Shown here: positions 24,402 to 53,022 of the stretch, piece by piece | Layout: each line of letters opens with the position of its first letter | Position numbering within the stretch: position 1 is the stretch's first letter | DNA from: Candidatus Omnitrophota bacterium | Lineage (GTDB): Bacteria > Omnitrophota > Gorgyraeia > Gygaellales > Profunditerraquicolaceae | Length of the DNA: 64,000 nucleotides | Direction: 5' to 3' | Assembly (NCBI GenBank): GCA_022710715.1 | Contig: JAKLGJ010000001.1 | Location: 42,041-106,040, forward strand | Made by a program: the position numbers and the translations under genes | Notes under the pieces: generated by a model | What the model saw: the letters and a program-made list of their open reading frames with translations, nothing else | Databases searched by the model: none | What the model was told of the DNA's origin: nothing

Positions 24402-24886
24402 GCGCAAGAACCGCTATTACCGCCGCGATTGCATGTATGACTTTATCATTCATCTGCAGCCAGCCTGTCCCGGCGCAGGAAGCGCCGCAGGCCGAGCAGC
24501 CGCAGGTGCAGGTTGCGATAAAACAGGTTTCCGGCGTTATCAGCGGTTTATCTTCCGGTTTCATCGCTATCGAGCTGGGCGGGGGCAGCGCTAAGGGCGC
24601 CCGTGAGTCGGCATTCAATCTGGACAAGAATGTCCGGATCGTGCATAAGAAAAGCCTGAAAGAACTTTCTGTCGGCGATACCGTTTCTCTGGATTACGAA
24701 GAAACGGTAACCAAGCAAGCGGACGGAAAGAAGATGCGAAAAACCCGCGTAATCGCGATTACATTCCTTAAAGCTGCGCCGCAAGGTTTGATTGCGCAGG
24801 AAGAGACCCAACCTCTTCAGAAAAGCGAGCCGAAAGCCGGCGAGCTTTCTCTGAAGGGAATTAAAGGGGAGGCCGGCAATGAATAA
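24398..24886 (+). CDS. Small secreted protein (signal peptide), unknown function
   Basis: ATGA overlap with the upstream gene. N-terminal MSARTAITAAIACMTLSFICSQPVPAQEA resembles a Sec signal peptide. Ends 8 nt inside the giant ORF start. Confidence 0.5.
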   Translation: MSARTAITAAIACMTLSFICSQPVPAQEAPQAEQPQVQVAIKQVSGVISGLSSGFIAIELGGGSAKGARESAFNLDKNVRIVHKKSLKELSVGDTVSLDYEETVTKQADGKKMRKTRVIAITFLKAAPQGLIAQEETQPLQKSEPKAGELSLKGIKGEAGNE

Positions 24887-27800
24887 AAAGACTATTATTT
24901 CGAGAACGAGCTTTGCGGCGATCGGTTTGGTTTTCGGTTTATTCTTGAGCCTGTTCTTCGCATTGCCGGAGGCCTCGGCGGTCCAGATCAAGAAGGTCCA
25001 GACCGGCGACGTCTATTTCGACACGGACGACATTTCCCAGACCGTGCCTATCCAGGCGGTGGACCAGACCAAGACGCTTATCCTGGTCTATCCCAATGTG
25101 GATTACAATACCAGCAACTACATCTATAATTCGCTGTTTACCGTGCAGTTCGAAGCGGATAACAGTATCGTGCTTAACCGCGACGGCGCCAACACCGGCG
25201 CGTATGTGCGTTATTATATCATTGAATTCACCGACGGCGTTTTCGTGCAGCGGGGGATCAGCTCTTTTATCTACGGCAACTATAATAACACCGCGTACCG
25301 GATCAAGGAAGTGATCCTACCGACTTCCATCGACCCGGAAAAGTCTTTTGCCGTGGTTAATACTCGTTTCAACTACACTTCAAGCGCCTATGATGAAATG
25401 ACCCTGGTCACCGGAGAAATATTCGATGAAGATACGATGATCCTGGAGAGGAGCTCTTCCTATGACGCCAACAGGACGGTGAACATCGTCTGGCAGGTGG
25501 TGGAATTCCAGACCGACGCGATCGTGCAGTCCGGCAACCTGACCATGCCCTGGAACGCAACGTCCGCCACGGTTTCGCTGACCGACGATCCCACCGATGG
25601 GACGTTCAGCAACCTGGACTATATTCCCGCGGGCAAAACCGACAAATGCTGGCTGTTCTATCAGACCCGCGCCCGAGCCAATATCAACGGCGTGGAAGGC
25701 CGCTACGCCATCCGCGGCGATATCAGCGCGGAAAACCAGTTGACCTTTACCCGGGCCCAGGGCGACGGTACGACGGTCAACGACGAAAACTATATCCGCT
25801 GGTATCTCATTCGTTTTACCGATGAAAGCACCAAAGTCCAGAAAGATTCAGTGACAGTCGCCGCAGCGAGCGATCTGGCCATGGAAACTATTCCTACGGC
25901 GGTCGATCCTTCGCGCGCTTTCCCGTTTATCGGGGTTTCCGGTCAGGCTAATACCACGGCCACGTATGAGGACGATATCAGGTTCCAGCCGGAATTCAAC
26001 GTAGCCAAAGGCGTGGCTTTTCAGCCTGACGGGACTACGCCGGCGATCTGGGTTGCCGGGTTCCATTCCAATAAAGTGTACAAGTTCAATGCGGATACCG
26101 GCGCGTATATCACTTCAGTCACCGTCGGCACCGAACCGGTGGCAGTCTGCTACGATTCCGAGAACGACGCCATCTGGGTGGCCAATTACGGCTCGAATAA
26201 CGTGACCAGGATCAATGCCGATAACGCCACGGTAGACGGCACGGTGGCAGTTGGTACCGGCCCTACGGATATCTGTTTCGAAACGATCACTAACTCCGTC
26301 TGGACCGCCAATTATGTTTCCGCCACGACCGGATCCGTGAGCAAAGTAGACGCTTCGGCGATGACTTTGACCAGCACCGGCACCGCCACCTACGGCCCCA
26401 CCAGCATCTGCTGGGACCAGAGTAATAATTATATATGGATCTGTTACTGGACAGGCACTAATACCGTCCAGCTGGGTTACTGGACCTGCGCGGATAATGA
26501 TTTGAGCAACGGCCTGACTGCCCGCGATATCGGCAACGGTTCTCAAGCCTATACCTGTATCCGCTACGCGCCCACCAACGGCATTGATGGACAGACTTAT
26601 AACAGTATCTGGGTGGCATCTTTGCGTTATAATTTCGTGATGAAGATCCGCTGCAATGCTCTGGGCACCTATTATCAGTATTATCCCGAACTGGCGCCCA
26701 GCGGCATGACCTGGGATCCTACTACCAACCGCATGTGGATTGCAAATTACGCGTCCAATAAGCTTACCAAGATGAAATCATCCGACGGTACGTCTGACGA
26801 AACCAACCCGGACACCGACACCAATCCTTTCTCGGTGTGCTACGCTGCGACCGCAACGCCGTATATCTGGGTTTCCAACGCTTCCGCCCGCACTCTGCAG
26901 AGATTCGATCCGACCGACAGTTCAAATGAAGGGACGTTCGCCATCAGCACCTCTGAAGATCAGCTGGCTCTCAAAAGAGCCAATACTGCCAATTCCAGCG
27001 ATATCAACTGGCAGGTCATCGAATTCGCGCCGATCACCGTGAAAAGCCCTAACGGCGGCGAAGTATGGCACGTGGGAGCGGATCCGGCGGATACCACCAT
27101 TACCTGGAAGCACGCGGATTCCCTGGCCGGATCGACCGTGGATATCCTGCTTTCTCAAAACGGAGGGACCACCTATCCGTTGACTATCACCACCGGAGTC
27201 AATGCTACCGCGGATGCGTTCGCCTGGACTATCGACAACGTCGAAGACGGCGCGAATCCTCTGCAGGACGACCTGCGGGTGAGGATCATCAAGACCGGCA
27301 CTACCACTACCGACCGGCAGTACGACGATTCCAACGGGAATTTCGAGATCAAAGGGACCATTGCGGTTACCCAGCCTAACGGCGGGCAGACCGATTGGTA
27401 CGTGGGGGATAAGGATAAGAAGATACAGTGGAGCAAGACCGGTGACTTCGATCCGGCCCACGATGCCGACTACAGTTTTAATATCTATCTTTCCGAGGAC
27501 GGAGGGGACAATTACAATTATACCGTAGTTACCGGCCTGCTTCAGGCGGATGTAGCCTGCGGCGTTGCGGACGATACCTGCGAGTGGACCTGGGATGAGA
27601 GCAATAACGGGATCCCGGACAAAATCGGCGCCGATCGTAAGATCAAGGTAGCCCTGAACGGGGAAGAATCTGCGGTCAATGACGTTTCGGACGCGGTTTT
27701 CTCCATTCGCGGCGTGGTTACCCTCACCGCGCCTAACGGCGGGCAGACCTGGCTGGCGACCGAATCCAACGATATCACCTGGACCAAGAAAGGTTCCATT

Positions 27801-30800
27801 GCGTCTTTTACCTTGAAATACTCTTTGAACAGCGGCGCGGATTATCTCGCGACTATCGACAGCAGCGTGGATGCGGCTACGTATTGTACCGGAGATACCT
27901 GCACCTATCCCTGGAATCCCACTCCAGAAGCGGCTATCGGCACTGCGGTGCGCATTAAAGTGATCAGCAATGAAGCGGTCGGTCTGCAGGTGGAAGATGC
28001 TTCGGACGCCAATCTCACCATCGCGGCTTCCGTGCAGCTGGATACGCCTACCGGCGTGGACGTCTGGACGGCTACCGAAGGAGCGGATATCACCTGGACC
28101 GTGCACGGCGTGATGGATTACGTGCATTTGTGGTGGTCGGCGGATAACGGGGTGAGCTGGACCCGGATCACCGGCGACGCGGGCACGGCTGCCGCAGCAG
28201 GCAGCTATCACTGGAACAGCGTGGCTGAAGGCCTGGTGGGCACTACCTGCAGGATCTGCGTTTCCAAGCGCAACGGTTCCGGAGAGACCGAGCCTTCGAC
28301 GGTCAAATCGGTTTCCGCGGCCTTTGTCTCGCGCGGCAAGCTGATTCTCTCGAGTTTCGACGGCGGCGAAATGTTCCTGGCCGGCTCCGCCCAGAATATC
28401 ACCTGGGACGCCAAAGGCATCGGGCTGGGCAATGTGCGCATTTATTATGCGGCGGACGGATCGGATTTCAGCAGCCTGCTGACGGATTCCACGCCTGCTT
28501 CCGATGAAACCTTCCCCTGGCCGGCGCTGCCTTTGACCACGACCAATACCGGCAAAGTCAAGATCGAGCTGTTCAACGAACCTCTGGTTAACGACACTTC
28601 GGCCGGCGCCTTCATTATCGGGACCCTGGTCATTACCACGCCGGACGGCGACGAAAGCTGGACCGTGGATGCCAGCGAAAATATCGTCTGGGATTCGGTG
28701 AAGTTCACCGGTAACGCGCACATCTATTACAGCGACGACGGCGGCACGGATAATTATCCGCATTCGATCACCACCGTTCCGGTCGCGCTTTCCGAAGAGA
28801 TCAAATCCTGGACCATTCCCGACGCCATCGGCACGAACCTGAAAGTCAAGATCGTTTCCGTGGATGCGCCGGCAGTGTTTGCGGTATCCCCGGGCACATT
28901 CGTCATCAAAGGCGGCTTCAATGTGAGCACGCCTGCGGGCACGGATAAATGGGAAGTGGGTACCCAGCATAACCTGGACTGGGTGACGCACGGCACGATC
29001 AATAACGTCGATCTGTACTGGAATACCAATAACGGCGCCTGGACCCAGTTCGGCAACGATCTTTCCAACGGTATCGGCTATGCCAACTGGACGGTTCCCG
29101 ACGCCATCGGGATCAACACCAAGATCAAGGTGACCAATGCCGACGGCACGGTTTCCGCGGAGTCCGCGGCGTTCACGGTCAAAGGTAAACTGCAGGTGAC
29201 CGCGCCGGTTTCCGGCGACGTCTGGTATAAAGGCGACACCAACCGGGTAGTTAGCTGGTTTGCCTGGGGCACGGTGACCAATGTCAAGATAGAGTACAAG
29301 ACTTCATTGGCCGGCGGGTATACCACGATCGTGGCCAATGATCCCAGTCATACTGCGGGCAATAACTCTTATACCTGGGCGGCAGGCGTGGCGGACGAGA
29401 AATCCGAAACGTGCTACATTCGTGTTTCCGATGCCAATAACGCCGAAGTGGAAGCGGTTTCCGATGCGTTCTCCATCCGGCCGAAGATCACGGTCAGCGC
29501 TCCGGTGGTCGGGACCGATTTCACCGTGGGTTCGGATAATGCCAATGCCGTGCAGTGGAGCATCAACGGCTCGACCAAAGTCAGCACGGTCAACGTGGTC
29601 TACAGCACTGCCGGCGCAGGCGGCCCGTTCGATAAGACCATCGCTTCCGGCGTCACTGCAGGCGACGGGCAATGTAACTGGGACGATGTCGGCGATTATA
29701 TCGGCAATAACGTGGTGGTGCGCGTGGTGGATACCGGCAACAGCAATGTCTGGGGCAATTCCGGCGTCCTGGGTATCAAAGGCAGCATCACCCTTTCCCA
29801 GCCGGTGGGCAGCGAAGACTGGAAAGTGGGAGAGACTACTCATAATATCGTCTGGGGCAAGACCGGAACCATCGGCACGGTGAAGATCTACGCGGATTAC
29901 GGCTCCGGATACGAAGCTGTCCCTGTGGGAACTGCGGATGCCGAAGCAGTCAGCCTCTGGAACTGGACTCCTATCCCGGACCATGTCTCCAATACGGTCA
30001 AAGTCAAGATCACCGACGGCGATAACGAGGCCAAGACCTTTATCGAATCCAACGTATTCCATATTGTCGGCGGTTTCACCATCTCTCAACCCGGAACCCT
30101 GTACGCCACCGATCCGTATACCATCAGCTGGACTGCTTCCGCTTCCGGTATTTCCAAGGTCAAAATAGATTTTTATAACGGCACCAGTTGGTCGCCCGTG
30201 GCTACCGACGTGAATAACGACGGCACCAACGGCGGTTCGTACGCCTGGACTGTGCCCGCGAACACCGATTCCACCGCCTGCAAGCTGCGCGTGACCTCTA
30301 CCACTCCGGATCAGCCGGCTTCCGCATCGGAAACCGCGGCGTTCACGGTCAAGGTGGGCAAGTTTACCGTTTCCCAGCCCAATACCCTGATCACCGGCGA
30401 TGCGTACACCGTTTCCTGGACCAGCGAGGCAGCCGGCGTTTCCAAGGTCAAGATCGAGTTCTATAACGGATCGGGCTGGTCGGATATCGCTACCAACCAG
30501 GATAATAGCGGCGTTGCCGGCGGTTCGTACGGGTGGACTGTGCCCGGGACCACCAATTCCGCGGCGTGTAAACTCCGGGTTACCGCCACTACACCCGCTC
30601 AAGCCGGGTCCGCTTCCGAAACCAACGCGTTCTGGGTGCACGGCAAGATCGAATTCACCGGCGTGACCACTCCTTCTCCGACTGTGGGAGAGATGTGGAC
30701 CGTGGGTCAGAGCGAGGATATCAATTTCAAGATCACCGGAAAGATCGACAACGTGGATATTCTTTACTCCAAGACCGGCGGAGAGCCGTATTCCTATCCC

Positions 30801-39800: not shown

Positions 39801-42800
39801 AGCATCGCCAATGTCAAGCTCGAGTACTCCACGGATAACGGTACCACCTATCCCAATACCATCGTCGCTTCTACCGACGCTTCCACCGGCGCCTATCTGT
39901 GGACCGTGCCGGATTCCATCGGCGCCAACCGCAAGGTCAAAGTGTCCGATGTTCTGGATGCCAGCGTGTTCGACGTTTCCGACGCCGGGTTTACCGTCAA
40001 AGGTTCGGTGACCGTCACCGCGCCTAACGGAGGAGAAGCCTGGGGAGTGGGCACGCAGCATGCCGTTACCTGGACCAGGACCGGCAGCTTCCTTAACGTA
40101 AAGATCGAGTATTCCACGGACGGCGGCGTGACCTATCCTTCCACCATCGCAGCTTCTACCGATGCCGCAGCCGGGACCTATAACTGGACTATCCCGGACG
40201 ATATCTCTTCCGGTTGCAAGGTCCGGGTAAGCAATGTCCTGGATAGCACCGTGGCCGATGTTTCAGATACCAACTTCAAGATCGTGGGGATCCTGAACTT
40301 GACCTCTCCTGTAGGCGGGGAGCGCTGGATCGTGGCTACCAACCATAACATCACCTGGACCCGCAGCGGCACCATCGCCAATGTCAAGCTGGAGTATTCC
40401 ATCAACGGCGGCGGCACGTATCCCAACACTATCGTGGCTTCTACACCCGGCGGATCGTTGAGCTTTACCTGGCCCGTGCCGGACAATATCACCAAGACCG
40501 CCCGGGTGAGGATATCCGACGTACTGGATTCCACGGTATTGGATACCTCGGACGCCAATTTCGTCATCTCTGCAGGTTTCACTCTTTCCAGCCCTAACGG
40601 CGGAGAAGTTCTGCCTGTGGCCGGTACGCACAATATCGCCTGGGCTCCGGTGGGTTCCGCTACTACCGTGCGGCTCGACTATTCTACGGACGGCGGTTCG
40701 AGTTACGATAAGAATATTTCCACTTCTACCGCCAACTCCGGGTCGTTCTCCTGGACCGTGCCGGATACCGTGTCCGCGCAGTGCAAGGTCATGGTCAGCG
40801 ACTACAACGATATAGACGCTTTCGACGTTTCGGACGCCAATTTCAAGATCCGCGGCGACTTAGTGGTCACCGCGCCTAACGGCGGCGAAGCCTGGGCTGT
40901 AGGTACGGCTTATAACATCACCTGGACCAAAGCCGGTTCCATCGCCAACATCAAGATCGAGTACTCCACCGACGGCGGCACCACGTATCCGAATCTGATC
41001 GTCGCCAGCACCAACGCCAGTGCGCTTACGTACAGCTGGACGGTCCCGGATACATTGTCTACCAACTGTCGTGTCAGGATCACCGATACCGGAGACGCCG
41101 CGGTATTCGATTCTTCGAATGCCAGCTTCAAGATCAGAGGCGCCTTTACCCTTACCGCTCCCAACGGAGGGGAGATCTGGGAGGTGGGTACGGTCCAGAA
41201 CGTTACCTGGACCATGGTCGGCTCGATCGTCAACGCCAAACTGGAATATTCCACGGACGGCGGCTCGAGCTACGTTACCACCATCGTCGCCACTACCGAC
41301 GCTTCGGCGATGAGCTATCCCTGGTTGATCCCCAACGAGATCACCACGCAGTTGCGCGTGCGCATTTCCGATGTTTCCGACGCCTCGGTGTATGACGCTT
41401 CCAACGCCAATTTCAAGATCAAGGGCGTGCTGCGCATTACCGCGCCTAACGGCGGCGAAGACTGGGATGTGGGGGTGAGCAACAATATTACCTGGGTGAC
41501 CACCGGTTCAGTGACCTCGGTGCGCCTGGATTATTCCACGGACAGCGGGACTACTTTCCCGGGCGTGATCGTGGCATCCACGCCTGCGGCAGCCGGCACC
41601 TATGCCTGGACCGTGCCCGACGCGATCTCCGTTGATGTTCGGGTCAAGATCACCAATCTTTCCGACGCTACGGTCAACGACGTCTCCGACGCGGATTTCA
41701 AGATCAAAGGCCGCCTGACCGTGACCGCTCCTAACGGCGGAGAGGTCTGGGGAGTCGGTTCCACGGAAACGGTCGGCTGGTCGCGCATCGGCTCGTTCTC
41801 CAATGTGAAGATCGACTACTCCGTGGATTCCGGCGGTTCCTTCCCCAATCCGATCGTCGCTTCCACGCCTGCGGCAGCCGGCGGATACTCCTGGACTATT
41901 CCGGACAACATCAAGACCACGGTAAGGGTCCGGGTCAGCGACGCGGCGGATTCCACGGTTTTCGATATTTCCAACGCCGATTTCAAGATCAGAGGCAACC
42001 TGCTTTTGACCGCTCCCAACGGAACGGAAGTGTGGCTGATCAGTTCCAGCCAGGCGATCACCTGGGTGCGCTACGGCTCGATCTCCAAAGTCAGACTGGA
42101 TTATTCCAAAGACGGCGGATCGAACTATTCCTTTAATATCTGCACCTCGCAGGATGCCGGACCGCAGACCTATAACTGGTCTATTCCGGATAATCCCGGT
42201 ACGGCGGTAAGGGTCAAGATCACCGATGAAGGGGATAACACCGTTTACGATTCCTCCAACGCGAATTTCACCATCCGCGGCGGTTTCCAGATCCTGGCGC
42301 CGAACGGCGGGGAAGCCTGGACGGTCAATTCCAGCCATGGTATTGCCTGGACCACATTCGGTTCCTACGCCAACGTCAAGATCTGGTATTCCAAGGATAA
42401 CGGTTCGACCTGGGATATCGTCAACGGCAACACGCTTAACTCCAGTCCGTATGTCTGGACCATTCCCGACGCCATATCCACCCAGTGCCTGGTCAAGATC
42501 GCCGACGTCATCGACGTGGACGCGGTGGATACTTCCGACGCGGCGTTCATCATCCGCGGTCAGGTGAATATAACCTCTCCCAACGGAGGCGAGGCCTGGG
42601 GCGTGGGGTCTTCGCAGACGATCACCTGGAACAAGACCGGCACTATTCCCAGTTTCAAGCTGGAATATTCCACCAACGCTTTTGCCGATGAGTCGCAGAC
42701 CCATCTGATCAACGGCGGCATCCCCGGAGCCAGCGTTTCCTATTCCTGGACCGTTCCGGATGTCATCGGCACTAACTTGAAGATCAGGGTCAGCGACGCC

Positions 42801-45800
42801 ACGGACACGGCGGTTACCGATGTGTCCGACAACCCGTTCCGGGTGCGCGGCGCTTTGACCGTGACCGCTCCCAACGGCGGCGAAGCCTGGATCGTCGGTT
42901 CCAGTCACAGTATTACCTGGAACACCGGCGGTACCATCGCCAATGTCAAGGTCGAGTATTCTACCGACGCGGGGAGTTCCTGGACCATCATTGCCGCTTC
43001 CGCGCCGAATATCAACAGCTATGCCTGGACCGTTCCCGACGCCATTTCCAGCCAGTGCCGGGTCAGGGTATCGGATTTTACCGATTCCGACGCCAGTGAT
43101 ACTTCGAATGCCAACTTCAAGATCCGCGGCGATCTGGTCATTACCGCTCCCAACGGAGGAGAGAAATGGGCGGTCGGCACCACCAAGACCATCACCTGGA
43201 CCAGGACCGGCTCCATCTCCAACATGCGTCTGGAATATTCCGATAACGGCGGAACCACCTATGCTCCGATCGTGGCTTCCACTACCGGCAGCAACTATTC
43301 CTGGACCGTGCCTGACGCCATCACCATTCAGGCTCTGGTCAGGATCTATGATGTCAGCGACATGACGGTTACCGACGTTTCGGACGCGACGTTCAAGATC
43401 CAGGGTTCTTTCACCGTGACTTCTCCCAACGGCGGCGAAGCCTGGCAGGCGGCTACCGAGAACACGATCACCTGGACCTCCAACGGTTCGGTTAACTTCG
43501 TGCGCGTGGATTACTCCAAGGACAGCGGCGTTACCTGGAACGAGATCGTGGCGTCCACCGCTAACGACGGAGAGCAGACCTGGTTCATCCCGGTGGAGGC
43601 GGTTTCCGTGAATAACCGCATCCGCGTGGCCGACGCCGGAGACGTGGAAGCGTTCGATATGTCCAATAACGATTTCCGCGTGCGTTGTTCCTTCACCCTG
43701 ACCGCGCCTAACGGCGGCGAGAAGTGGAGGGTAGGACGAGCGTATAATATTGCCTGGACCAAGGTGGGTAACCCGGCGAACGTGAAGCTGGAATTCTCCC
43801 GCGATAACTTCGTCACCGATTTCAACACCATCGCGGCTGTGGCTTCCCCGGTCAGCCCGTATTCCTGGACTATCCCAGACTATATCCATCCCGGAGTGAA
43901 AGTGAGGATCTCCGACGCTGCCGATTACGGCGCCCGCGATGATTCGGATGCCGTGTTCGCTATTGTCGGCGACGTTACCGTGACCGCGCCCGTGGGCGGG
44001 GAACAGTGGATCGTCGATTCCCAGCAGACGATCACCTGGACCAGCGCCGGCTCGATCACCGACGTGAAGATCGAGTATTCCACTACCGGCGGCGCTTCCT
44101 ACAATCTGATCGAAGGCGTGCCGAACAGCCACTCGTATTTGTGGACCATCCCGGACACGATCAGCGCTTCCTGCAGGATACGCGTTTCCGATCTGACCTA
44201 TCCCGACGGCAACGGTGTATCCACCGCCAATTTCAAGATCAAAGCCGGGTTCACGTTGAGCGCGCCTAACGGCGGCGAGATCTGGACGGTCGGCGATGCG
44301 CATAACATCACCTGGACCAATATCGGTACGGTCAACAACGCGCGCCTGGATTATTCCACTGACGGCGGCACGACCTATCCCAGCGTGATCGCGGCATCCA
44401 CTGCCAACACCGGCACCTATGCCTGGACCGTTCCCGACGCTATTTCGACGCAGGTCAGGGTCAGGGTCGGCAGCGCTACGGACGTCGACGCGTATGACGT
44501 CTCCAACGCCAACTTCAAGATCCGCGGCGCTTTCCAGGTCACCGCTCCCAACGGCGGGGAACTCTGGCGGATCGCGCTGGATTATCCCATCCAGTGGAAT
44601 ACCATCGGCACCATAGCTAACGTGCGCATTCTCTATTCCACCGACGGCGGGACGACCTATCCGAATACCATCGTCAACTCGGTCGCCAACATCAACTCCT
44701 ACACCTGGCATTTACCTGACACCAGGACGCCTACAGCCAAAGTGCAGGTGGTCAATCCCGCGGATACCACGGTGCTCGATGAATCCGACGCCACGTTCCG
44801 TATTCAGGGATCATTGACCATGACCGCGCCCAACGGCGGAGAAGAGTGGATTTCCGGCGACGTGCACAATATCACCTGGAACTGGGGCGGCACGCTGCCT
44901 ACGGTGAAGCTGACCTATTCCATCAACAGCGGCGTCACCTATCCTTACACCATCAACGCGGCGGCGGCTAACGGCGCCGGCGGAGAAGGCGCGCATTCCT
45001 ACGCCTGGACCGTTCCGGATACCGTTGCCTCTACCTGCAGAGTGAAGATCGAGGATCCCGACGACTCGACCGTTGCCAGCGCTTCGGCGGCCGATTTCAA
45101 GATCCGCGGCGGCATCAGCATCACGTCGCCGGCAGGCGGGGAACGCTGGGTGACCAATGAAGTGCATAACATCACCTGGACGGATCGCGGCGAGATCCCC
45201 ACGGTCAAGATCCAGTATTCCAAGGATAACTTCGTTGCCGACGTGCATACCATAGCGGCTGCGGCGGAGAATACCAACAGCTACGCCTGGACCATTCCCG
45301 ATGACCGTTCCACCACGGTCAAGGTGCGCGTCACGGATACCCGCGACGATACTATCTCCGGCACTTCCGCCGGCAACGTGCATATCGACTACTACACCAT
45401 CACCTGGGTGCTCAAGGATCTGTTGACCAACGTCGGCCTGACCAACCTGGGCGTTACCGAAAAAGCCACCGGCACCGAGAACGTGCGCTGGTCGCAGACC
45501 GGATTGACTTCTCCGATCGTGACCCAGGCCCCGTACGGGTTCTGGACCACTACCTGGAGCGCTACCGGTTACGGCGACAAGGGCCAGAATTATACTGCGG
45601 ACAGCGATCAGAGCTTCGAGCTCTACATGGAAACGACCGCAGTGCATATCTGGCGCGCGGAAGCCCGTTTCAGCTGGAACGCGGATACCCGGGAACTCAA
45701 CGCTACTTCCTGGCTGGAAAGAGACGGTTCCATCGTTACCGGCGTCAAGAGCGTGCTTATCACCATCTACGATGAAGACGGCACGGTCATCACCACGATG

Positions 45801-47708
45801 AACGCTCCGACCACTTCCGCCGAAGGTTACTTCACCATGGTCTGGAAGGATACCACCAACAAGCTGCAAGCCGGCGTGGTTTACGCGGCGCTGGTCGATC
45901 TGATGAACTTGAGCGACGCGCATTTCAAGACGCCGACGTCCTTCTCGATCACCGAGACGGAGCGTTTGAAGAATACCGAAGAAGCGGTGAACAACATGGT
46001 CAATGTCACTTTGCCTTCGTTCCAGGCCACGGTACAGGGCACCTTGAATACGGGTCTGGCCGAGCAGAAGGATCTGATCGAGGAAAAGATGACCGAGCAG
46101 ACCGGTTTGCTCGTCGGTGACAAGACCAAAGCGGAGATCCTGGCGGCCGGCGGCATGGTAGGTATGGTGCAGCAGTCGCTGACCAGTTTCGAAAGCTCAT
46201 CCAATGAAGCCATACAGCGGCTGCAGTCCGGAGCCGATACGGCGGTCGAAGCAGGCCAGGAACTCGAAGCTACGGCCAAGAAGTATTCCTGGGATGCCTC
46301 TGCGGCTCCCAACCCGGCGCTTGCCGGAGACCGCGTTACGCTTTCCGTGCAGGGCCAGCCGGGCTGTCTGCCGATGTTGAGCGTATATACCTGGAACAAC
46401 AAGCCGGTCATGACCGATGTGATCCTGACCGAGTCGCGTCCGGGTTTCTACACCTATGAATTCAACGCCGATTCGCGGTTCGACGTAGGTAAGGCCTATA
46501 CCTATATCGTCAGCGAACAGTCGACCGGCGGTCTGGTATCCGGTTCGGCCATGGTCGAGTCCATGGGTATCTCCACGGTCGCCGGCCTTGCCGCGGCCGC
46601 TCCGGAAGCGGAACGCGCAGCCAAGAAGGCGCTGGACGCTATCCAGGCTGTAGAAGCGGTGCTGGTGTCCAAGGACAACATCAATATTGCCTCGACACTG
46701 CAGAGCCTGAAGTCGTCGGTGGATGAATTGCCGGCGCAGATAGCCAAGGAAGGGCCGAATACCCAGCTTACCGGCGCGGTCAACGATATCTCCGACAAGT
46801 TGAACAAGTTGCTCGGAGACGAAGGCGTTGATCTGGGCACGATGCTGGAGGAGAAACTGGGCGGTGAGTCGACGCTCAAAGAAATGCGCAATAAGACCGA
46901 TACCATCCAGGCAGTGGTAGACCTGCTGCTGCAGATCATGGAATCCAAGCTCGGCGGCGTGGATGAGCCGATCATCTCGGAATCCCTGCAGGCGGGGTCG
47001 GTGAAGTTCCGCATCGTCGTGGTCAACCCGTCGAAGATCAAGGTGCAGACGGTGAAGATCAAGAAGTATCTGCCTGAAGAAGTGCAGCTCAAGGATATCA
47101 TGGATGCCGGCGGATTGGACCTGGAGTACGATTCCGAGAAAGGCATCTATTACGCCTATAAGAACGATGTTGCGCTGCAACCCGGCGAATCCAGGGTGTT
47201 CGAGGTGGAAGTGGAAGACGTCTGGATCATTCCCGAAACCAAGATCACCGACCTGAAGAAGCAGGTGGAGAACGCCCTGCCGCGGTTCAAGAATACCGAA
47301 TTCGCCGCGCGCGTGGAAGAGATGGCCAGGACCGTTCCCGCGGTGCTCGAAGAGATGCTCAAGACCCAGCTGGACGAGACGGTCAGCCGCGAGCAGCATA
47401 TCGGCATCTATCGCCAGAACCTGCAGACGATCAAGCGGGTAACGGAGGAACTGGCGCGTCTGGATGCGATGATCAATCCGATGAAAGGCACTGCTACGCC
47501 GGAAGTGCTGGAGAAGAGCAAGTTCAAGATTAATCTCCCCGGCAAGAGCACCACCTGGTTGATCATTCTGGTGATCATCGTTTTTCTGGGATTGCTCGCC
47601 GGCGTGTTTTTCTTCGTCTGGCAGGCGCAGATGAAATCCGGCCAGGACGCGATCAAGGCTGCGGCCAAAGACGCGTTCCCCGGGCAGAAGCCTCCGGAAA
47701 AGAAATAA
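24879..47708 (+). CDS. Giant (7609 aa) cell-surface repeat protein: signal peptide, N-terminal modules, YVTN-type beta-propeller, about 70 tandem Ig-like (Kre9/KNH-like) repeats, coiled-coil region, C-terminal TM anchor
   Basis: SD GGGGAGG 8 nt before the ATG. Uninterrupted 22.8-kb ORF. The repeat consensus recurs every roughly 88 aa: TLTAPNGGExWxVGxxxxITWTxxGSIANVKLEYSTDGGxTYPxxIxASTDASTGSYxWTVPDAISTxCRVRISDxxDATVxDVSDANFKIKG. C-terminal TM LIILVIIVFLGLLAGVFFFVW, then a short tail. Confidence 0.85.
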   Translation: MNKKTIISRTSFAAIGLVFGLFLSLFFALPEASAVQIKKVQTGDVYFDTDDISQTVPIQAVDQTKTLILVYPNVDYNTSNYIYNSLFTVQFEADNSIVLNRDGANTGAYVRYYIIEFTDGVFVQRGISSFIYGNYNNTAYRIKEVILPTSIDPEKSFAVVNTRFNYTSSAYDEMTLVTGEIFDEDTMILERSSSYDANRTVNIVWQVVEFQTDAIVQSGNLTMPWNATSATVSLTDDPTDGTFSNLDYIPAGKTDKCWLFYQTRARANINGVEGRYAIRGDISAENQLTFTRAQGDGTTVNDENYIRWYLIRFTDESTKVQKDSVTVAAASDLAMETIPTAVDPSRAFPFIGVSGQANTTATYEDDIRFQPEFNVAKGVAFQPDGTTPAIWVAGFHSNKVYKFNADTGAYITSVTVGTEPVAVCYDSENDAIWVANYGSNNVTRINADNATVDGTVAVGTGPTDICFETITNSVWTANYVSATTGSVSKVDASAMTLTSTGTATYGPTSICWDQSNNYIWICYWTGTNTVQLGYWTCADNDLSNGLTARDIGNGSQAYTCIRYAPTNGIDGQTYNSIWVASLRYNFVMKIRCNALGTYYQYYPELAPSGMTWDPTTNRMWIANYASNKLTKMKSSDGTSDETNPDTDTNPFSVCYAATATPYIWVSNASARTLQRFDPTDSSNEGTFAISTSEDQLALKRANTANSSDINWQVIEFAPITVKSPNGGEVWHVGADPADTTITWKHADSLAGSTVDILLSQNGGTTYPLTITTGVNATADAFAWTIDNVEDGANPLQDDLRVRIIKTGTTTTDRQYDDSNGNFEIKGTIAVTQPNGGQTDWYVGDKDKKIQWSKTGDFDPAHDADYSFNIYLSEDGGDNYNYTVVTGLLQADVACGVADDTCEWTWDESNNGIPDKIGADRKIKVALNGEESAVNDVSDAVFSIRGVVTLTAPNGGQTWLATESNDITWTKKGSIASFTLKYSLNSGADYLATIDSSVDAATYCTGDTCTYPWNPTPEAAIGTAVRIKVISNEAVGLQVEDASDANLTIAASVQLDTPTGVDVWTATEGADITWTVHGVMDYVHLWWSADNGVSWTRITGDAGTAAAAGSYHWNSVAEGLVGTTCRICVSKRNGSGETEPSTVKSVSAAFVSRGKLILSSFDGGEMFLAGSAQNITWDAKGIGLGNVRIYYAADGSDFSSLLTDSTPASDETFPWPALPLTTTNTGKVKIELFNEPLVNDTSAGAFIIGTLVITTPDGDESWTVDASENIVWDSVKFTGNAHIYYSDDGGTDNYPHSITTVPVALSEEIKSWTIPDAIGTNLKVKIVSVDAPAVFAVSPGTFVIKGGFNVSTPAGTDKWEVGTQHNLDWVTHGTINNVDLYWNTNNGAWTQFGNDLSNGIGYANWTVPDAIGINTKIKVTNADGTVSAESAAFTVKGKLQVTAPVSGDVWYKGDTNRVVSWFAWGTVTNVKIEYKTSLAGGYTTIVANDPSHTAGNNSYTWAAGVADEKSETCYIRVSDANNAEVEAVSDAFSIRPKITVSAPVVGTDFTVGSDNANAVQWSINGSTKVSTVNVVYSTAGAGGPFDKTIASGVTAGDGQCNWDDVGDYIGNNVVVRVVDTGNSNVWGNSGVLGIKGSITLSQPVGSEDWKVGETTHNIVWGKTGTIGTVKIYADYGSGYEAVPVGTADAEAVSLWNWTPIPDHVSNTVKVKITDGDNEAKTFIESNVFHIVGGFTISQPGTLYATDPYTISWTASASGISKVKIDFYNGTSWSPVATDVNNDGTNGGSYAWTVPANTDSTACKLRVTSTTPDQPASASETAAFTVKVGKFTVSQPNTLITGDAYTVSWTSEAAGVSKVKIEFYNGSGWSDIATNQDNSGVAGGSYGWTVPGTTNSAACKLRVTATTPAQAGSASETNAFWVHGKIEFTGVTTPSPTVGEMWTVGQSEDINFKITGKIDNVDILYSKTGGEPYSYPVTSGLAVSSGENSHSWSIPTNQDILTKTQARIKIQDSLQTTVVAQSPLFGIKGTISVTAPVASDIFTYGGAPTNITWTYAGLIQNVKMSYSTNGLTYDFTINSGNAVAVTPSSFAWSIPDKILGDVVSVKVEDADNDQCYGVSGTFEIVGQLTLVAPVGGEKWSVGSTQNILWTPTGTFTTVRIEASADDFTSHMLDITRPAGATGVQQSYGWVIPSTLSNTMKVRVSDPDHHPETVKDVSDATFKILGSLDVTAPEAGQAWYKGETNKVISWDAFGTVTNVKIEYKTSGGGAYTTIVANDGSHTAGPNTYTWSAGVADENSETCYIRVSDATNYDDVYSVSAAPFSIRPVISVTHPLVGSNIAVAASYANAVKWSLNGSTKVSNVDIVYSTNGTAGPFDKTIATSVEAALGQKDWNIVSDTISGNVVVKVMDSTNNAAFGYSPVFNIVGQIAVQQPAAGVDWFVGATDKNITWTKQGTIGTVNIYADYNDAQGYQSIATGVDSATGLWNWPAIPDKVNNAVKVKVTDADNEAVVFGESAAFHIAATFAVTAPVNGNVWKIGESKSITWTCAGTAVSTVKLEYSTNGFVNETATVLIAAAAPNTLTYSWPIPDAITTSGKVRVSDPANSNANALSGGLFSIMGTLTVTSPNAGTESWDVGSTYPVTWTKTGSIPTIDVYYSHNNGTDWAKVNTVAINAALGTWNWAIDEATELTSGKSGLVRVMDTSYGTVYDDSNLPFELKGQVTVNTPSLNNISMLVGDAYNITWTKYGAVNNVQLHYSINGGIGGGGSYLAPNLIATVVSEPSSYSWTVPDAIGTNLRVRVRDAANANVWDESNNPFTIRGKVHVDYPNGGETFLVGETKQVKWTPTGTYSQVKLEYSTNAFADESQTVVVGTVGAGDTGEQQSYDWTVPDKISTSLKMRISDANDALVSDVSDATFTIKGALTLTSPTTGVTWIVGESQNITWTRNGSVALVKLEYSTDGGGNYTQTIAENVAGGSSPYPWTIPDAIDSDIRVRVSDMSDGTVKSESGDFTIKGKLTLTAPNGGEVLTVDDNFDITWTRAGSIANVKLEYSTNGFSSEAETVEIVASTNATGTPPASYKYTWAVPDAIDASVKVRISNAADPTVTDVSNNLFKIQGSFTLTAPNGAEKWSVGSGQSVTWTKHGSIVNAKLELSKNSGSSYPIIITNSTPAGGLSYSWTIPDQIATQCRVRISDADDATVLDASNADFVIMGTFTVTAPNGSEVWVVNTQQNIAWSVVGTVSNVKLSYSTDGGGTYPHVIIASTENSSPYNWTIPDAIYNTCRVRVADAANDDAFDISNGNFKIKGVLTVVSPNGTEVWPINSGHNITWSRVGSVANVKIEYSTNGFTDELQTYTIIASTPGVDLSYLWTVEDTPSSNCKVRITDVTDATVFDVSNAAFRITGNLTVTYPNGGEELIVNEVKNITWTKFGSIASVKVQYSTDGGSTYPVGKVIIASTSASNLSYSWTLPDDISSQCRVKISDVGDDSVADQSDANFTIKGSVTLTAPNGGQNWIVGANEDITWTRNGSFANVKLEYSIDNFTTPVVITASTNATGTPADTYKYTWSVADAISTNVKVRISDALNSSVSDVSDAAFTIKGALSLTSPTTAVTWLVGESRNITWTRTGSIANVKLEYSINGGGAYPNVIIASTPAGTGSYGWTVADAIGGDVRVRVSDALDATVKDESDVSFTIKGVLTLTAPNTSVSLVVDDPYTITWTRAGSISTVKLEYSTNAFADEAQVTVIAASTDATTGSYAWTVPDAIGTTLKVRVTNTADDTVKDVSDTTFSIIGSVLLTAPNGTEQWVVGDENNVTWTKHGSITAVKLELSKDGGTTWPVSITNSTPGGGLSYAWTIPDQISTQCRVRISDTSNVNVVDTSDANFAIRGGFTVTSPTTGSEVWVVAEVHDITWSSNGTISNVKLDYSTNGGTTYDYTIIASTPNTNSYSWTIPDAIAITCKVRVSDASNANAFDESNNNFKIKGALRVTSPNAGTESWSVGYSHPITWERTGQVQSINIYYSANAGGDWTKINGAVVDAALGTWSWDMSADTELSTTALIRIIDASDATVTDTSNNQFTVKGGLRVETPSAAGISLQVGNSYNITWSKFGNIAQVKIHYSTNGGDIGEGTYPDPANLIAIVDADELESLWAVPDRIGTNLRIRVMQSDNANVWDESDNAFEIKGKLQVLQPNGGEIWFVGDANDLQWRPYGTFTSQVKLEYSTNGFANEAATTLIATVPAGASEGTSTYSWTIPNAIGSGLKVRTTDANNATVTDVSDSTFTIKGKLLLQTPNGGETWVVGTVQNITWQTTGTIANVKLEYSINNGATYPNVIVASTDGSTGSYPWTIPSAIGTNLRVRISDVSDATVEDVSNATFTVKGALLLTAPNGAEAWQIGSTHNITWTRTGAIANVKLSLSIDGITYPTTIVATTDASTGSYAWLIPDNPGNTTKVKVEDVSDSTVFDISDANFKIIGSFTLTEPNGGEAFGIGTNRYVRWTKTGSIANAKIQYSTNGGANYDNTIIASTPAGGLEYEWTVADTPTTTARVKISDASDVTVFDTSDANFRIQGVFGVTAPNGSEVLTVGGTQTITWSCVGSVTNVKLQYSTNGGSTYDYTIADSIANSLEYSWTVPDSISTQVRVRVADVNDDTAADASNGNFKIKGAVLLTSPNGTENWIVGSSHDITWTRTGSVATVRLDYSKNGGSTYVDAITASVNGTGDPAGTYKYAWTIPDAIGTQLRVRIMDTSDSTVLDQSDANFNIKGALTVTSPNGGQNWIVSSAYPITWTRTGAIAAVKIDYSKNSGSTFPNPVVASTDASTGTYSWTIPDDLSTAVRVRVMDAADSSVFDASDADFAIGGAVTLNAPNGGQIWYVGAAQNVTWTRFGSIPQVKLEYSINGGFSYTNTIIAATDAAAQTYAWAVADAIGDQVRVRVTDTTNAAVTDESDANFTIKGILLLTSPNGAETWIVGEARNVVWSRTGSIANVKLEYSTDNGTTYPNTIVASTDASTGAYLWTVPDSIGANRKVKVSDVLDASVFDVSDAGFTVKGSVTVTAPNGGEAWGVGTQHAVTWTRTGSFLNVKIEYSTDGGVTYPSTIAASTDAAAGTYNWTIPDDISSGCKVRVSNVLDSTVADVSDTNFKIVGILNLTSPVGGERWIVATNHNITWTRSGTIANVKLEYSINGGGTYPNTIVASTPGGSLSFTWPVPDNITKTARVRISDVLDSTVLDTSDANFVISAGFTLSSPNGGEVLPVAGTHNIAWAPVGSATTVRLDYSTDGGSSYDKNISTSTANSGSFSWTVPDTVSAQCKVMVSDYNDIDAFDVSDANFKIRGDLVVTAPNGGEAWAVGTAYNITWTKAGSIANIKIEYSTDGGTTYPNLIVASTNASALTYSWTVPDTLSTNCRVRITDTGDAAVFDSSNASFKIRGAFTLTAPNGGEIWEVGTVQNVTWTMVGSIVNAKLEYSTDGGSSYVTTIVATTDASAMSYPWLIPNEITTQLRVRISDVSDASVYDASNANFKIKGVLRITAPNGGEDWDVGVSNNITWVTTGSVTSVRLDYSTDSGTTFPGVIVASTPAAAGTYAWTVPDAISVDVRVKITNLSDATVNDVSDADFKIKGRLTVTAPNGGEVWGVGSTETVGWSRIGSFSNVKIDYSVDSGGSFPNPIVASTPAAAGGYSWTIPDNIKTTVRVRVSDAADSTVFDISNADFKIRGNLLLTAPNGTEVWLISSSQAITWVRYGSISKVRLDYSKDGGSNYSFNICTSQDAGPQTYNWSIPDNPGTAVRVKITDEGDNTVYDSSNANFTIRGGFQILAPNGGEAWTVNSSHGIAWTTFGSYANVKIWYSKDNGSTWDIVNGNTLNSSPYVWTIPDAISTQCLVKIADVIDVDAVDTSDAAFIIRGQVNITSPNGGEAWGVGSSQTITWNKTGTIPSFKLEYSTNAFADESQTHLINGGIPGASVSYSWTVPDVIGTNLKIRVSDATDTAVTDVSDNPFRVRGALTVTAPNGGEAWIVGSSHSITWNTGGTIANVKVEYSTDAGSSWTIIAASAPNINSYAWTVPDAISSQCRVRVSDFTDSDASDTSNANFKIRGDLVITAPNGGEKWAVGTTKTITWTRTGSISNMRLEYSDNGGTTYAPIVASTTGSNYSWTVPDAITIQALVRIYDVSDMTVTDVSDATFKIQGSFTVTSPNGGEAWQAATENTITWTSNGSVNFVRVDYSKDSGVTWNEIVASTANDGEQTWFIPVEAVSVNNRIRVADAGDVEAFDMSNNDFRVRCSFTLTAPNGGEKWRVGRAYNIAWTKVGNPANVKLEFSRDNFVTDFNTIAAVASPVSPYSWTIPDYIHPGVKVRISDAADYGARDDSDAVFAIVGDVTVTAPVGGEQWIVDSQQTITWTSAGSITDVKIEYSTTGGASYNLIEGVPNSHSYLWTIPDTISASCRIRVSDLTYPDGNGVSTANFKIKAGFTLSAPNGGEIWTVGDAHNITWTNIGTVNNARLDYSTDGGTTYPSVIAASTANTGTYAWTVPDAISTQVRVRVGSATDVDAYDVSNANFKIRGAFQVTAPNGGELWRIALDYPIQWNTIGTIANVRILYSTDGGTTYPNTIVNSVANINSYTWHLPDTRTPTAKVQVVNPADTTVLDESDATFRIQGSLTMTAPNGGEEWISGDVHNITWNWGGTLPTVKLTYSINSGVTYPYTINAAAANGAGGEGAHSYAWTVPDTVASTCRVKIEDPDDSTVASASAADFKIRGGISITSPAGGERWVTNEVHNITWTDRGEIPTVKIQYSKDNFVADVHTIAAAAENTNSYAWTIPDDRSTTVKVRVTDTRDDTISGTSAGNVHIDYYTITWVLKDLLTNVGLTNLGVTEKATGTENVRWSQTGLTSPIVTQAPYGFWTTTWSATGYGDKGQNYTADSDQSFELYMETTAVHIWRAEARFSWNADTRELNATSWLERDGSIVTGVKSVLITIYDEDGTVITTMNAPTTSAEGYFTMVWKDTTNKLQAGVVYAALVDLMNLSDAHFKTPTSFSITETERLKNTEEAVNNMVNVTLPSFQATVQGTLNTGLAEQKDLIEEKMTEQTGLLVGDKTKAEILAAGGMVGMVQQSLTSFESSSNEAIQRLQSGADTAVEAGQELEATAKKYSWDASAAPNPALAGDRVTLSVQGQPGCLPMLSVYTWNNKPVMTDVILTESRPGFYTYEFNADSRFDVGKAYTYIVSEQSTGGLVSGSAMVESMGISTVAGLAAAAPEAERAAKKALDAIQAVEAVLVSKDNINIASTLQSLKSSVDELPAQIAKEGPNTQLTGAVNDISDKLNKLLGDEGVDLGTMLEEKLGGESTLKEMRNKTDTIQAVVDLLLQIMESKLGGVDEPIISESLQAGSVKFRIVVVNPSKIKVQTVKIKKYLPEEVQLKDIMDAGGLDLEYDSEKGIYYAYKNDVALQPGESRVFEVEVEDVWIIPETKITDLKKQVENALPRFKNTEFAARVEEMARTVPAVLEEMLKTQLDETVSREQHIGIYRQNLQTIKRVTEELARLDAMINPMKGTATPEVLEKSKFKINLPGKSTTWLIILVIIVFLGLLAGVFFFVWQAQMKSGQDAIKAAAKDAFPGQKPPEKK

Positions 47709-47887: not shown

Positions 47888-47944
47888 AACTCCAACTTAT
47901 TGTTTGTTATAGAGTTAGCAAATAAACCCGAGGATATCTCGACG

Positions 47945-48178
47945 ATGTTCGAAATAGTCATGATCAGCCCGGAAGAAATCCTCTACCAGGGTAAAGCCGA
48001 GAGCGCGATCTTTCCCGGAGAGTCGGGAGTTTTTGAGACGCTTTCCTATCATCGTCCGGTGGTCAGCCGTCTGGTGGGGGGGAGCGTGTTCATCGATAAC
48101 CGGGAATATCCCATCCGGCGGGGATTAATGGGTTTCAGTAATAATAAAGCCACCGTCATCGTGGAGAGAAACGCATAA
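47945..48178 (+). CDS. atpC: F-type ATP synthase epsilon subunit, beta-sandwich domain only
   Basis: MFEIVMISPEEILYQGKAESAIFPGESGVFETLSYHRPVVSRLVGGSVFI matches the AtpC N-domain. About 77 aa, with no C-terminal helical hairpin. The ORF-track TTG start at 47900 is rejected. Confidence 0.7.
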   Translation: MFEIVMISPEEILYQGKAESAIFPGESGVFETLSYHRPVVSRLVGGSVFIDNREYPIRRGLMGFSNNKATVIVERNA

Positions 48179-48509: not shown

Positions 48510-48524
48510 TCAAGGAGTTCTAAG

Positions 48525-51567: not shown

Positions 51568-53022
<1,455 letters not shown>

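Follow-up and report, generated by a model that had tools for sequence, protein, structure and literature searches.

The question raised by this locus is what the product of one very large gene does for the bacterium that carries it. The gene lies in a 64,000-nucleotide stretch of DNA (the window) from Candidatus Omnitrophota bacterium (assembly GCA_022710715.1, contig JAKLGJ010000001.1, positions 42,041 to 106,040 of the forward strand), and an earlier note on the window had described its product as a surface protein of 7609 amino acids (aa) built from diverged Ig-like repeats. Giant open reading frames (ORFs) are concentrated in the Omnitrophota and have been proposed to be adhesins, so the literature agrees with the lineage and the attachment role that the note had suggested (PMC10066038; bioRxiv 10.1101/2023.11.21.568195). 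We favour, with moderate confidence, the reading that the giant gene encodes an extended cell-envelope fibre acting as an adhesin or tether. The interpretation as an adhesin-type surface protein held in each of its testable elements, and the present analysis extends it by the abundance of the repeat module in public data, by a conserved head and base, and by the linkage of the gene to an ATPase/pilus locus.

It was confirmed that the giant gene is real. ORF analysis of the window bore out the exact coordinates given earlier, with 7609 codons and a single stop at the end, and a Shine-Dalgarno-like GGGGAGG stands a few bases 5' of the ATG. The probability of 7609 open codons is ~1e-118 at the regional base composition, and the GC content at third codon positions matches that of the neighbouring atpA (0.74 and 0.745), so the gene uses the codon usage of its own genome. 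Sequence matching the window at 100% identity occurs in JGI 3300010429 (a 1.62-Mb contig), in MEGAHIT contigs of ENA ERZ27257455/6, and in further records (JGI 3300025715, SRR4244739, SRR5007146, and the NCBI metagenome-assembled genome (MAG) GCA_035914815.1), two Logan assemblies being included. Identity was compared directly for the first ~10.0 kb of the 22.8-kb ORF (to window position 34886), and the evidence for full length elsewhere is a pair of gene calls, one of 7609 aa (JGI) and one of 7593 aa (ENA), that differ only in the choice of start. The DNA fetched from at least seven sample or assembly records (loci L001-L010) is identical, which implies a single clone spread over samples.

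A collapsed or chimeric array, or a pseudogene, is the obvious concern with an ORF of this size. Only short-read assemblies are available, and two of the shorter contigs stop precisely at residue 716, where the array begins (a third stops at residue 2576). We find such an artefact hardly credible. Exact DNA repeats within the ORF extend to 35 bp at most and never to 41 bp, and a run of Tandem Repeats Finder on it came back empty, so collapse of the repeats is unlikely; that program was blank because the copies are too diverged in DNA, and a protein hidden Markov model (HMM) was needed instead. The modules share on average 51% of their DNA and 37% of their protein sequence, and the closest pair, modules 8 and 16, is 74% identical in DNA and 75% in protein, which sustains the earlier argument that drift of the copies speaks against an artefact. 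Additionally, two assembly pipelines give the same full-length call with ~10 kb of the ORF identical, the chance of so long an open frame is negligible and its codon usage native, and at least 76 species show the same architecture.

The other frames of the gene are closed, except for the antisense frame in register (24879-47708, minus strand), which has 22 stops only and is open for up to 1372 codons. Its ORFs of 1197, 1067, and 689 aa inside the giant gene could mislead gene callers and are probably shadow frames of a compositionally biased coding strand. The GC skew is negative within the giant gene (to -0.09; window 24000-46000) and positive on both flanks; this dip is probably an effect of the codon and amino-acid composition of the Thr/Ala/Ser-rich repeats and not a replication signal.

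Most of the protein is an array of contiguous modules related to Kre9/KNH proteins. A self-iterated HMM determined that there are 63 of them, with a core of 85 aa, gaps of 9-16 aa, and a period of ~95 aa, which revises the earlier figures of about 70 repeats of 88 aa; they leave no space within the array for other domains. The module consensus is G..T.T.PNGGE.W.VG....ITWT..G...NVKL.YS..GG..Y...I.A...A....Y.WT.PD.I.....VRV.D..D..V.D.S.A.F.I, and each module carries the motif S-x-[DN]-G-G-x-T-[YW], which we take to be Asp-box-like. The suggested resemblance to Kre9/KNH was supported when PF10342 scored 27.0 bits on modules 1-6 and 38.2 bits on four mid-array modules, above the gathering cutoff of 24.6; precomputed PF10342 matches to the genes called by JGI and ENA bore only the flag 'faint'. 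Reelin_subrepeat-B reached 29.2 bits against a cutoff of 27 over the whole stretch, with no individual stretch passing. The array matched no enzyme family in Pfam, in line with a repeat of the adhesin type rather than an enzyme, and the repeat profile found no relative among PDB sequences. An AlphaFold run on the last two array modules and the C-terminal region, with 36 homologues, modelled both modules as 8-strand beta-sandwiches (predicted local distance difference test (pLDDT) of ~77-95 in 10-residue blocks), as expected of the Ig-like fold proposed at first. The blocks 8-10/16-18, 19-22/33-36, and 23-26/30-33 are mutual best matches, and the array therefore grew by old multi-module segmental duplications. 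At 3.5-4.5 nm for each of the 63 modules the rod would be 220-280 nm long, so that a length of hundreds of nm, as the note had it, is a reasonable estimate.

The array in itself is not new. When the profile of the 63 modules was searched against 1.84 billion representative proteins, 37,384 proteins matched at E <= 1e-3 and 5,426 at E <= 1e-30, and among the best matches are proteins of 5-7 thousand aa (kaa) in which 50-58 stretches were matched. The module is thus common in public data, as are arrays of 50-58 copies, and relatives in such numbers indicate that surface proteins have widely reused it, also in large arrays, as a building block. Among the best 150 relatives of the array, 28 have a terminal sorting domain of the type IX secretion system (T9SS), 24 have at least part of the base described below (12 of these with a C-terminal transmembrane (TM) helix), and nine have the head sandwiches; head and base occur together in none, and the longest is 6941 aa compared with 7609 aa here. 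The adhesin reading gains support from the fact that the PF10342-type module also builds giant T9SS-exported surface proteins in other phyla.

The features that distinguish this protein lie at its two ends. By hydropathy it has two hydrophobic segments only (aa ~10-35 and aa ~7560-7581), one at each end, in keeping with the signal-peptide-like N-terminus and C-terminal TM anchor first proposed. The N-terminus (MNKK...LPEASA followed by VQIKK) has the pattern of a Sec-type signal peptide, which would be cleaved after LPEASA; the junction of A-x-A with VQIK is kept in the homologue consensus. The head that follows was modelled by AlphaFold as three beta-sandwiches and then a 7-bladed propeller (mean pLDDT 73.8, predicted template modelling score 0.68; pLDDT >85 in most 10-residue blocks of the propeller). 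Each sandwich of the first head part terminates in a W/Y-x-V-V-E-F-like strand. This part matched no Pfam family and is common to relatives that lack the propeller, as BLASTP aligned it with the N-termini of the proteins P0053, P0055, and P0103. The propeller is of the YVTN type: TIGR02276 (beta_rpt_yvtn) scored 31.7 bits on the head against a cutoff of 27.85, the top Foldseek match in the PDB was 1L0Q, followed by hydrazine synthase beta, YncE, and Lp49, and the head sequence profile matched 1L0Q at E = 8.5e-39. In the alignment, residues ~375-700 stand in place of a short loop of the propeller-less P0053 and P0055, and on this basis the propeller has been cleanly inserted into the last sandwich of the head, and only part of the family has it. 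Six close homologues of the head (residues 35-716) were found at 38-48% identity, all of them truncated, together with weak matches to YVTN propellers. Four of the six are labelled Omnitrophota/Omnitrophica, one Margulisiibacteriota, and one has only a functional name from JGI.

It is very improbable that the fibre is a tethered enzyme, in which a putative lyase- or lactonase-type propeller would be presented to the cell walls of prey. Virginiamycin B lyase is among the fold matches of the head, cell-wall degradation has been proposed for other Omnitrophota giants (bioRxiv 10.1101/2023.11.21.568195), and Pfam gave weak matches to Vgb_lyase (34.6 bits, cutoff 50) and SGL (24.6 bits, cutoff 26.3). 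Both matches fall below their curated cutoffs and were not used, however; a far stronger relative is a non-enzymatic YVTN domain of a surface-layer protein, and many members of the family lack the propeller wholly. The single amplified genome AM-311-M22 (L042:6734-15783) has a further gene encoding a head-like domain, 31% identical to the window head, which lies in an interval of ~9 kb between the giant gene and the ATPase cluster.

The C-terminal end of the protein consists of a conserved base, a TM helix, and a short tail. The model of the base (mean pLDDT 78.5) places in order two beta-sandwiches, a long helical hairpin, a beta-sandwich, a helical bundle, a DUF11/CARDB-like beta-sandwich, helices, and the TM helix. 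Residues 6838-7609 have no relative in Pfam, NCBIfam, or PDB sequences; the weak matches to spanin2, FlgD_ig, DUF11, and SinI-partner recorded in the family searches of the giant protein all fell short of their curated cutoffs and played no part in assignment. The base has 36 protein homologues at 36-67% identity, of which the named ones are mostly Omnitrophota/Omnitrophica and mostly marked 'partial'. Conservation climbs toward the membrane, with the top 22-residue windows in the helical bundle, the last sandwich, and the TM helix, and the majority fraction is 0.77 for the TM helix and 0.55 for the tail.

A scan with the base alignment, limited to one genome per species, returned 76 loci, 28-65% identical. 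The record titles name Omnitrophota/Omnitrophica for 55 and 'uncultured Planctomycetales/Planctomycetia' for 14, and the other seven are titled uncultured bacterium, bacterium, Patescibacteria group, PVC group, or Margulisiibacteriota. Head and base homologues are labelled almost exclusively Omnitrophota/Omnitrophica, and the tie of the gene family to this phylum stands. In the 10 kb of upstream sequence viewed at each base locus, the frame 5' of the base is open to the edge of the fetched DNA in nearly all loci and up to 35 modules are visible. Six apparently short complete homologues (L023, L027, L035, L046, L072, and L084) were dismissed as scaffold gaps (runs of N) or single stops in longer arrays, and no truly short version of the family was found among those checked. 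The head differs among relatives, with or without the propeller, while the base stays conserved, as would be expected if a variable binding tip sat on a conserved anchor. The window gene appears to be the sole complete head-to-anchor member among the relatives examined, and the family (head sandwiches, base, and anchor) and its locus appear to be undescribed in the literature consulted. Two relatives, P0053 (6457 aa) and P0061 (6910 aa), have a propeller-less head and 56-58 modules, lack the TM helix, and end immediately before the last beta-sandwich of the base (…GGIDxPVVHV(I/L)Y(E/Q)); each is either a truncated variant of the family or a split gene.

The gene neighbourhood connects the fibre with a second system (Table 1). 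A cluster of F-type ATPase genes lies directly 3' of the giant gene in 75 of the 76 base loci (epsilon detected in 75, c in 73, b/delta in 69, alpha in 67, gamma in 62, and beta in 63), and pilus genes follow (a stand-alone MshEN-domain protein in 40, PilB in 51, and PilC in 48); detection falls along the block because contigs end. The median gap from the stop of the giant gene to epsilon is 37 bp, with 50 bp or less in 40 of the 76 loci and several overlaps. A reciprocal metagenome scan from the b/delta alignment returned 80 loci, 48 of them with enough upstream sequence, and the base was directly upstream in 45 of these 48, an array without the base in two, and neither in one; as the b/delta alignment was drawn from loci selected by the base, this test is confined to that ATPase clade. 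Linkage that is two-way and tightly spaced makes a functional connection likely, and co-transcription from the giant gene through the ATPase to the pilus block is plausible. This connection may be one of shared regulation among attachment components only, or it may be a physical coupling to the ATPase. In the two exceptional loci with an array and no base (L096:2-4414 and L110:3-3032) an array ORF ending in a module stands directly 5' of the ATPase cluster; these are either a base-less variant or an effect of assembly or frameshift.

Table 1. Positions in the window of the giant gene, its parts, and the adjacent genes
Feature	Coordinates	Strand	Basis
Y1_Tnp/RAYT-like membrane protein, 398 aa	23205..24401	+	PF01797, 46.7 bits
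Small secreted protein, 162 aa, signal peptide, no family	24398..24886	+	conserved in orthologs
Giant ORF, 7609 aa and stop	24879..47708	+	ATG start, no internal stop
Signal-peptide-like N-terminus, aa 1-34 (...LPEASA, then VQIKK)	24879..24980	+	sequence, hydropathy
Head part 1, three beta-sandwiches, aa ~35-370	24981..25988	+	AlphaFold ma9a52499c944 residues 1-330, BLASTP
Head part 2, 7-bladed YVTN-type beta-propeller, aa ~371-700	25989..26978	+	TIGR02276, AlphaFold, Foldseek
Return strand of the last head sandwich (…INWQVIEF), aa 701-716	26979..27026	+	model, alignment to relatives
Array of 63 tandem Kre9/KNH-like (PF10342) beta-sandwich modules, aa 717-6837	27027..45389	+	iterated HMM, Pfam, AlphaFold
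Conserved base, aa 6838-7559	45390..47555	+	homologue alignment, AlphaFold
C-terminal TM helix (WLIILVIIVFLGLLAGVFFFVW), aa ~7560-7581	47556..47621	+	hydropathy, conservation
Short Lys-rich cytoplasmic tail, 28 aa, conserved A-F-P motif	47622..47705	+	sequence, alignment
F-type ATPase cluster: epsilon (92 aa), c, b/delta fusion, alpha, gamma, beta	47900..53022	+	
Type IVa pilus/type II secretion system (T2SS)-like genes: MshEN-domain protein, PilB-type ATPase with PilZ, PilC/GspF	53025..56988	+	

The order and composition of the ATPase cluster are unusual, with a short epsilon in first place. No gene for the a subunit was found in the cluster at any locus examined, and the genes are spaced too closely to admit one. 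The b/delta fusion carries an N-terminal TM segment, and the c subunit keeps the ion-binding Glu of helix 2 and lacks the Gly-rich motif of helix 1. The alpha subunit is near canonical F1 alpha, matching that of a bacterial ATP synthase (PDB 2qe7) at E = 5e-133, and no Mycoplasma F1-like chain was present among the 60 PDB matches viewed of a total of 72. A non-respiratory 'symbiotic' F-type ATPase in the Omnitrophota was described by Seymour et al. in 2023; its alpha subunit groups with the type-2/3 gliding ATPases of Mycoplasma, it lies beside type IVa pilus genes in every class, and it was read as serving attachment or motility on host cells (PMC10066038). Seymour et al. treated the giant ORFs (>20 kb) apart from this ATPase locus (PMC10066038). 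A 2026 study by Nielsen and Lui determined that most genomes lack a complete F1Fo by KEGG criteria and that V/A-type ATPase subunits occur in most complete Gorgyraeia genomes (bioRxiv 10.64898/2026.06.07.730766). The pilus part of the locus (block 53025-62310, plus strand) also encodes a MA-family peptidase, several pseudopilins, a PilM-PilN fusion, and a T2SS-M-like protein, and its PilB ATPase carries a C-terminal PilZ domain of the type that binds cyclic di-GMP.

Taken as an adhesin or tether, the fibre would work as follows. The protein would be exported by Sec through its N-terminal signal peptide and held in the cytoplasmic membrane by the single C-terminal helix, with 28 residues in the cytoplasm. 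The base of ~720 aa, in which beta-sandwiches alternate with long helices, would form a stalk close to the membrane, and the 63 modules would act as a spacer of ~220-280 nm, roughly one cell diameter of an ultra-small bacterium. The distal N-terminal head and its YVTN propeller may bind a ligand on another cell or surface. As the family gene is the first large gene of the ATPase/pilus block, the fibre most likely works with that attachment or motility locus, and the block from the giant gene to the type IVa pilus genes is probably co-transcribed.

Several points weigh against the adhesin reading. The organism probably has an outer membrane, since two GT9 heptosyltransferase genes and pseudopilin genes of the T2SS type lie in the window, and surface exposure of a protein anchored in the inner membrane would require an extra route across the outer one; no secretin gene is present in the locus, up to rpsO and pnp at the window end. 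The gap to epsilon in the window is 191 bp, more than in most relatives (its plus strand holds no terminator-like site), and gene order alone is no proof of a functional link. Foldseek matches of the base model are generic multi-Ig proteins with low TM-scores, so that comparison of the base with the PDB is uninformative on function. Lastly, every assembly available is a short-read one of what appears to be a single clone.

Another reading is a periplasmic or intra-envelope scaffold, a long ruler or belt that is anchored in the inner membrane and never crosses the outer one. Its topology would be a signal peptide with an inner-membrane anchor, as here, the locus has no secretin gene, and outer-membrane targeting signals (a T9SS C-terminal domain, a beta-barrel domain, or an RTX/type I secretion system (T1SS) signal) are all absent. 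We nevertheless regard a scaffold as improbable because a rod of 220-280 nm far exceeds the width of the periplasm, heads with YVTN propellers and PF10342 arrays are otherwise found on exported surface proteins, and the variable distal head suggests contact with the outside.

The ATPase linkage bears on another reading, in which the fibre is a force-transmitting leg or tether, the external part of a machine driven by the adjacent a-less F-type ATPase, possibly together with the type IVa pilus. The coupling is attractive because Mycoplasma mobile has TM-anchored giant legs that work with an F1-like motor. Its Gli349 combines a distal binding foot with 18 repeats of ~100 aa, its Gli521 carries a TM segment at the C-terminus, and these giant surface proteins work with an internal type-2 F1-like ATPase (PMC7052211). 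M. mobile gliding (Gli349 leg and Gli521 crank) thus joins TM-anchored giant surface proteins to a paralogue of the F-type ATPase, and in the window protein the TM helix, tail, and membrane-proximal base would provide the coupling to the motor. The linkage of giant gene and ATPase runs in both directions with gaps down to 0-15 bp or overlaps, few parts of the base are as conserved as the TM helix, the cluster lacks the a subunit and has no space for it, and the published architecture of Gli349/Gli521 (PMC7052211), the placement of alpha with the non-respiratory Mycoplasma type-2/3 enzymes (PMC10066038), and the V/A-type subunits of most complete Gorgyraeia genomes (bioRxiv 10.64898/2026.06.07.730766) all fit.

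We nonetheless think it unlikely that the fibre is such a leg. The alpha subunit looks canonical, with no Mycoplasma F1-like chain among the PDB matches covered, and an enzyme whose c subunit keeps its Glu may be an ordinary ion-driven one with the a subunit encoded elsewhere. The ATPase here keeps c, b/delta, gamma, epsilon, and a canonical-looking alpha, whereas a type-2/3 F1-like enzyme would have divergent alpha and beta subunits and no membrane sector; with the published placement of the clade among the type-2/3 enzymes, the evidence on its type is mixed. The cytoplasmic tail is short and only moderately conserved, the leg and motor genes of M. mobile are not adjacent, the window organism is probably diderm, unlike M. 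mobile, and the likeness to the Gli proteins is one of described architecture. A full version of this proposal, which we put forward as a tentative and rather doubtful one, would make the fibre, the a-less F-type ATPase, and the type IVa pilus a single machine for catching, holding, or moving along hosts, with the base, TM helix, and tail coupled to the ATPase mechanically or by regulation. Such a machine would be an independently evolved diderm counterpart of M. mobile gliding, and the Y1-like and small secreted proteins encoded upstream of the fibre would be its dedicated accessory or regulatory factors.

These two upstream genes form a fixed trio with the giant gene. The Y1-like protein has an N-terminal HUH-type domain (cytoplasmic), a central TM helix, and a conserved C-terminal domain of ~110 aa, and it scored 76.6 bits with NCBIfam REP_Tyr_transpos, under the cutoff of 80. 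Its gene overlaps that of the 162-aa protein by 4 nt, the latter overlaps the giant gene by 8 nt, and a strong terminator-like hairpin (23085-23111) stands immediately 5' of the trio. The order Y1-like gene, small gene, giant gene was found in five of the five species in which the sequence upstream of the head is visible (the window and four others); a fifth other contig shows the small gene only ahead of the head. The Y1-like orthologs (L087:5036-6217, L088:3188-4384, L169:1212-2381, and L170:719-1912) are 389-398 aa long, and the one in L088 lacks the HUH motif. The 162-aa protein is 32-44% identical to its orthologs in L087 and L088 and has positional orthologs in L169, L170, and L171. An insertion of the IS200 type was considered for the Y1-like gene and rejected in view of the synteny in all five species, the TM helix, the extra domain, and the loss of HUH in L088; a mobile element of the IS200/IS605 or RAYT kind would have a variable position, a length of ~150 aa, an intact HUH motif, and a catalytic Tyr. 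The Y1-like protein is a fixed partner, probably with a repurposed transposase domain, and not a mobile insertion; it is possibly a regulator.

Further upstream, ~23 kb of same-strand genes for glycan synthesis (window 476-22788, plus strand) encode seven glycosyltransferases (GT) of family GT2, several of GT1/GT4, methyltransferases, a GT1-methyltransferase fusion, a PMT_2-type GT-C (8100-9599), two GT9 heptosyltransferases, DegT, a radical-SAM/SPASM enzyme, WbqC, PIG-L, and a WecA-like transferase. The cluster could serve the synthesis of lipopolysaccharide (LPS) or the glycosylation of a Ser/Thr-rich fibre, Ser and Thr making up 21% of the giant protein. Such glycosylation belongs to yet another reading, in which the fibre is a structural glycoprotein of a coat or S-layer-like structure, made in many membrane-anchored copies that would cover the cell, and possibly glycosylated by this cluster, rather than a specific adhesin. 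The Ser/Thr content and the presence of a PMT_2-type GT-C would agree with it, as would the fact that the head has its best relative in a domain of an archaeal surface-layer protein, the occurrence of the Haloferax S-layer protein 7ptp among the Foldseek matches of the base model, and the description of Velamenicoccus as a 'coated coccus' (PMC10066038). The glycan cluster, however, is partly syntenic in L087 only, is not conserved upstream in L088, L169, and L170, and could equally make LPS/O-antigen; a linear rod of 63 domains is atypical as a lattice unit, and a tip that varies while the base is conserved agrees better with binding. We therefore consider a coat protein quite unlikely.

The adhesin or tether reading can be set against the known giant surface proteins. 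Adhesins of the T1SS/RTX kind (LapA, SiiE, and the Marinomonas ice-binding adhesin) have the same long extender rod of Ig-like domains with a distal ligand-binding region, and 6xi3 (extender repeats of a large adhesion protein) is among the Foldseek matches of the base model. In these adhesins the RTX/T1SS signal is C-terminal, and it is the N-terminus that keeps the protein at the outer membrane. The window protein has the opposite polarity, with a Sec signal at the N-terminus and an inner-membrane anchor at the C-terminus; no RTX or related Pfam match was found in its C-terminal 802 aa, and no T1SS genes lie nearby, the neighbours being the glycan-synthesis, ATPase, and pilus genes. The giant PF10342 proteins of the T9SS type share the module, in arrays of 40-58 copies and lengths of 4-7 kaa. 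They end in a sorting domain (NYPNPFNP...), whereas the window protein has no NYPNPF-type motif at its C-terminus and ends in the base, the TM helix, and the Lys-rich tail; it also differs from them in its head and in its ATPase/pilus locus. The Methanosarcina mazei surface-layer fragment 1L0Q has a homologous YVTN propeller, and in both proteins Ig-like domains follow it. The archaeal protein has an Ig-like domain of the PKD type, whereas in the window protein the domains are of the PF10342 type, the propeller is inserted in a beta-sandwich head, and 63 modules follow.

The giants already described in the Omnitrophota, including the 39,678-aa protein of V. archaeovorus, are from the same phylum, membrane-associated, encoded near genes of the T2SS/type IV pilus kind, and proposed to act in cell attachment. 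The Archaeovorin/Dockerin giants of West-Roberts et al. (2023) are at least 30 kaa long and have many TM regions; they carry SecA-DEAD, dockerin, and C39 domains and are preceded by a T2SS-like locus, and neither PF10342 arrays nor ATP synthase are mentioned (bioRxiv 10.1101/2023.11.21.568195). The 2026 catalogue of Nielsen and Lui covers proteins of at least 10 kaa and includes a 'tandem-repeat scaffold' class, and mentions neither PF10342 nor a linkage to an F-type ATPase (bioRxiv 10.64898/2026.06.07.730766). The window protein, at 7.6 kaa, is smaller and under the 10-kaa and 30-kaa cut-offs of these surveys, it has two hydrophobic segments rather than the tens of the described giants, and Pfam found no SecA-DEAD, dockerin, TSP3, or C39 domain in its head or base.

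The Omnitrophota are widespread ultra-small bacteria with a presumed life on other cells. The surveys of giant genes published for them set length cut-offs of 10, 20, or 30 kaa and handle the 'symbiotic' ATPase/type IVa pilus locus separately. The 7.6-kaa fibre protein, which is fragmented in nearly every MAG, is a family conserved across the phylum, and it is the constant upstream partner of the 'symbiotic' ATPase locus, often with the spacing of an operon. The window gene is thus a concrete candidate for the external part of an attachment or motility system, and its conserved base can be used as a marker of the family. Coupling to the ATPase, if true, would put a rotary ATPase to a new use; if it is false, the proteins would still make up a well-defined new family of bacterial surface fibres.

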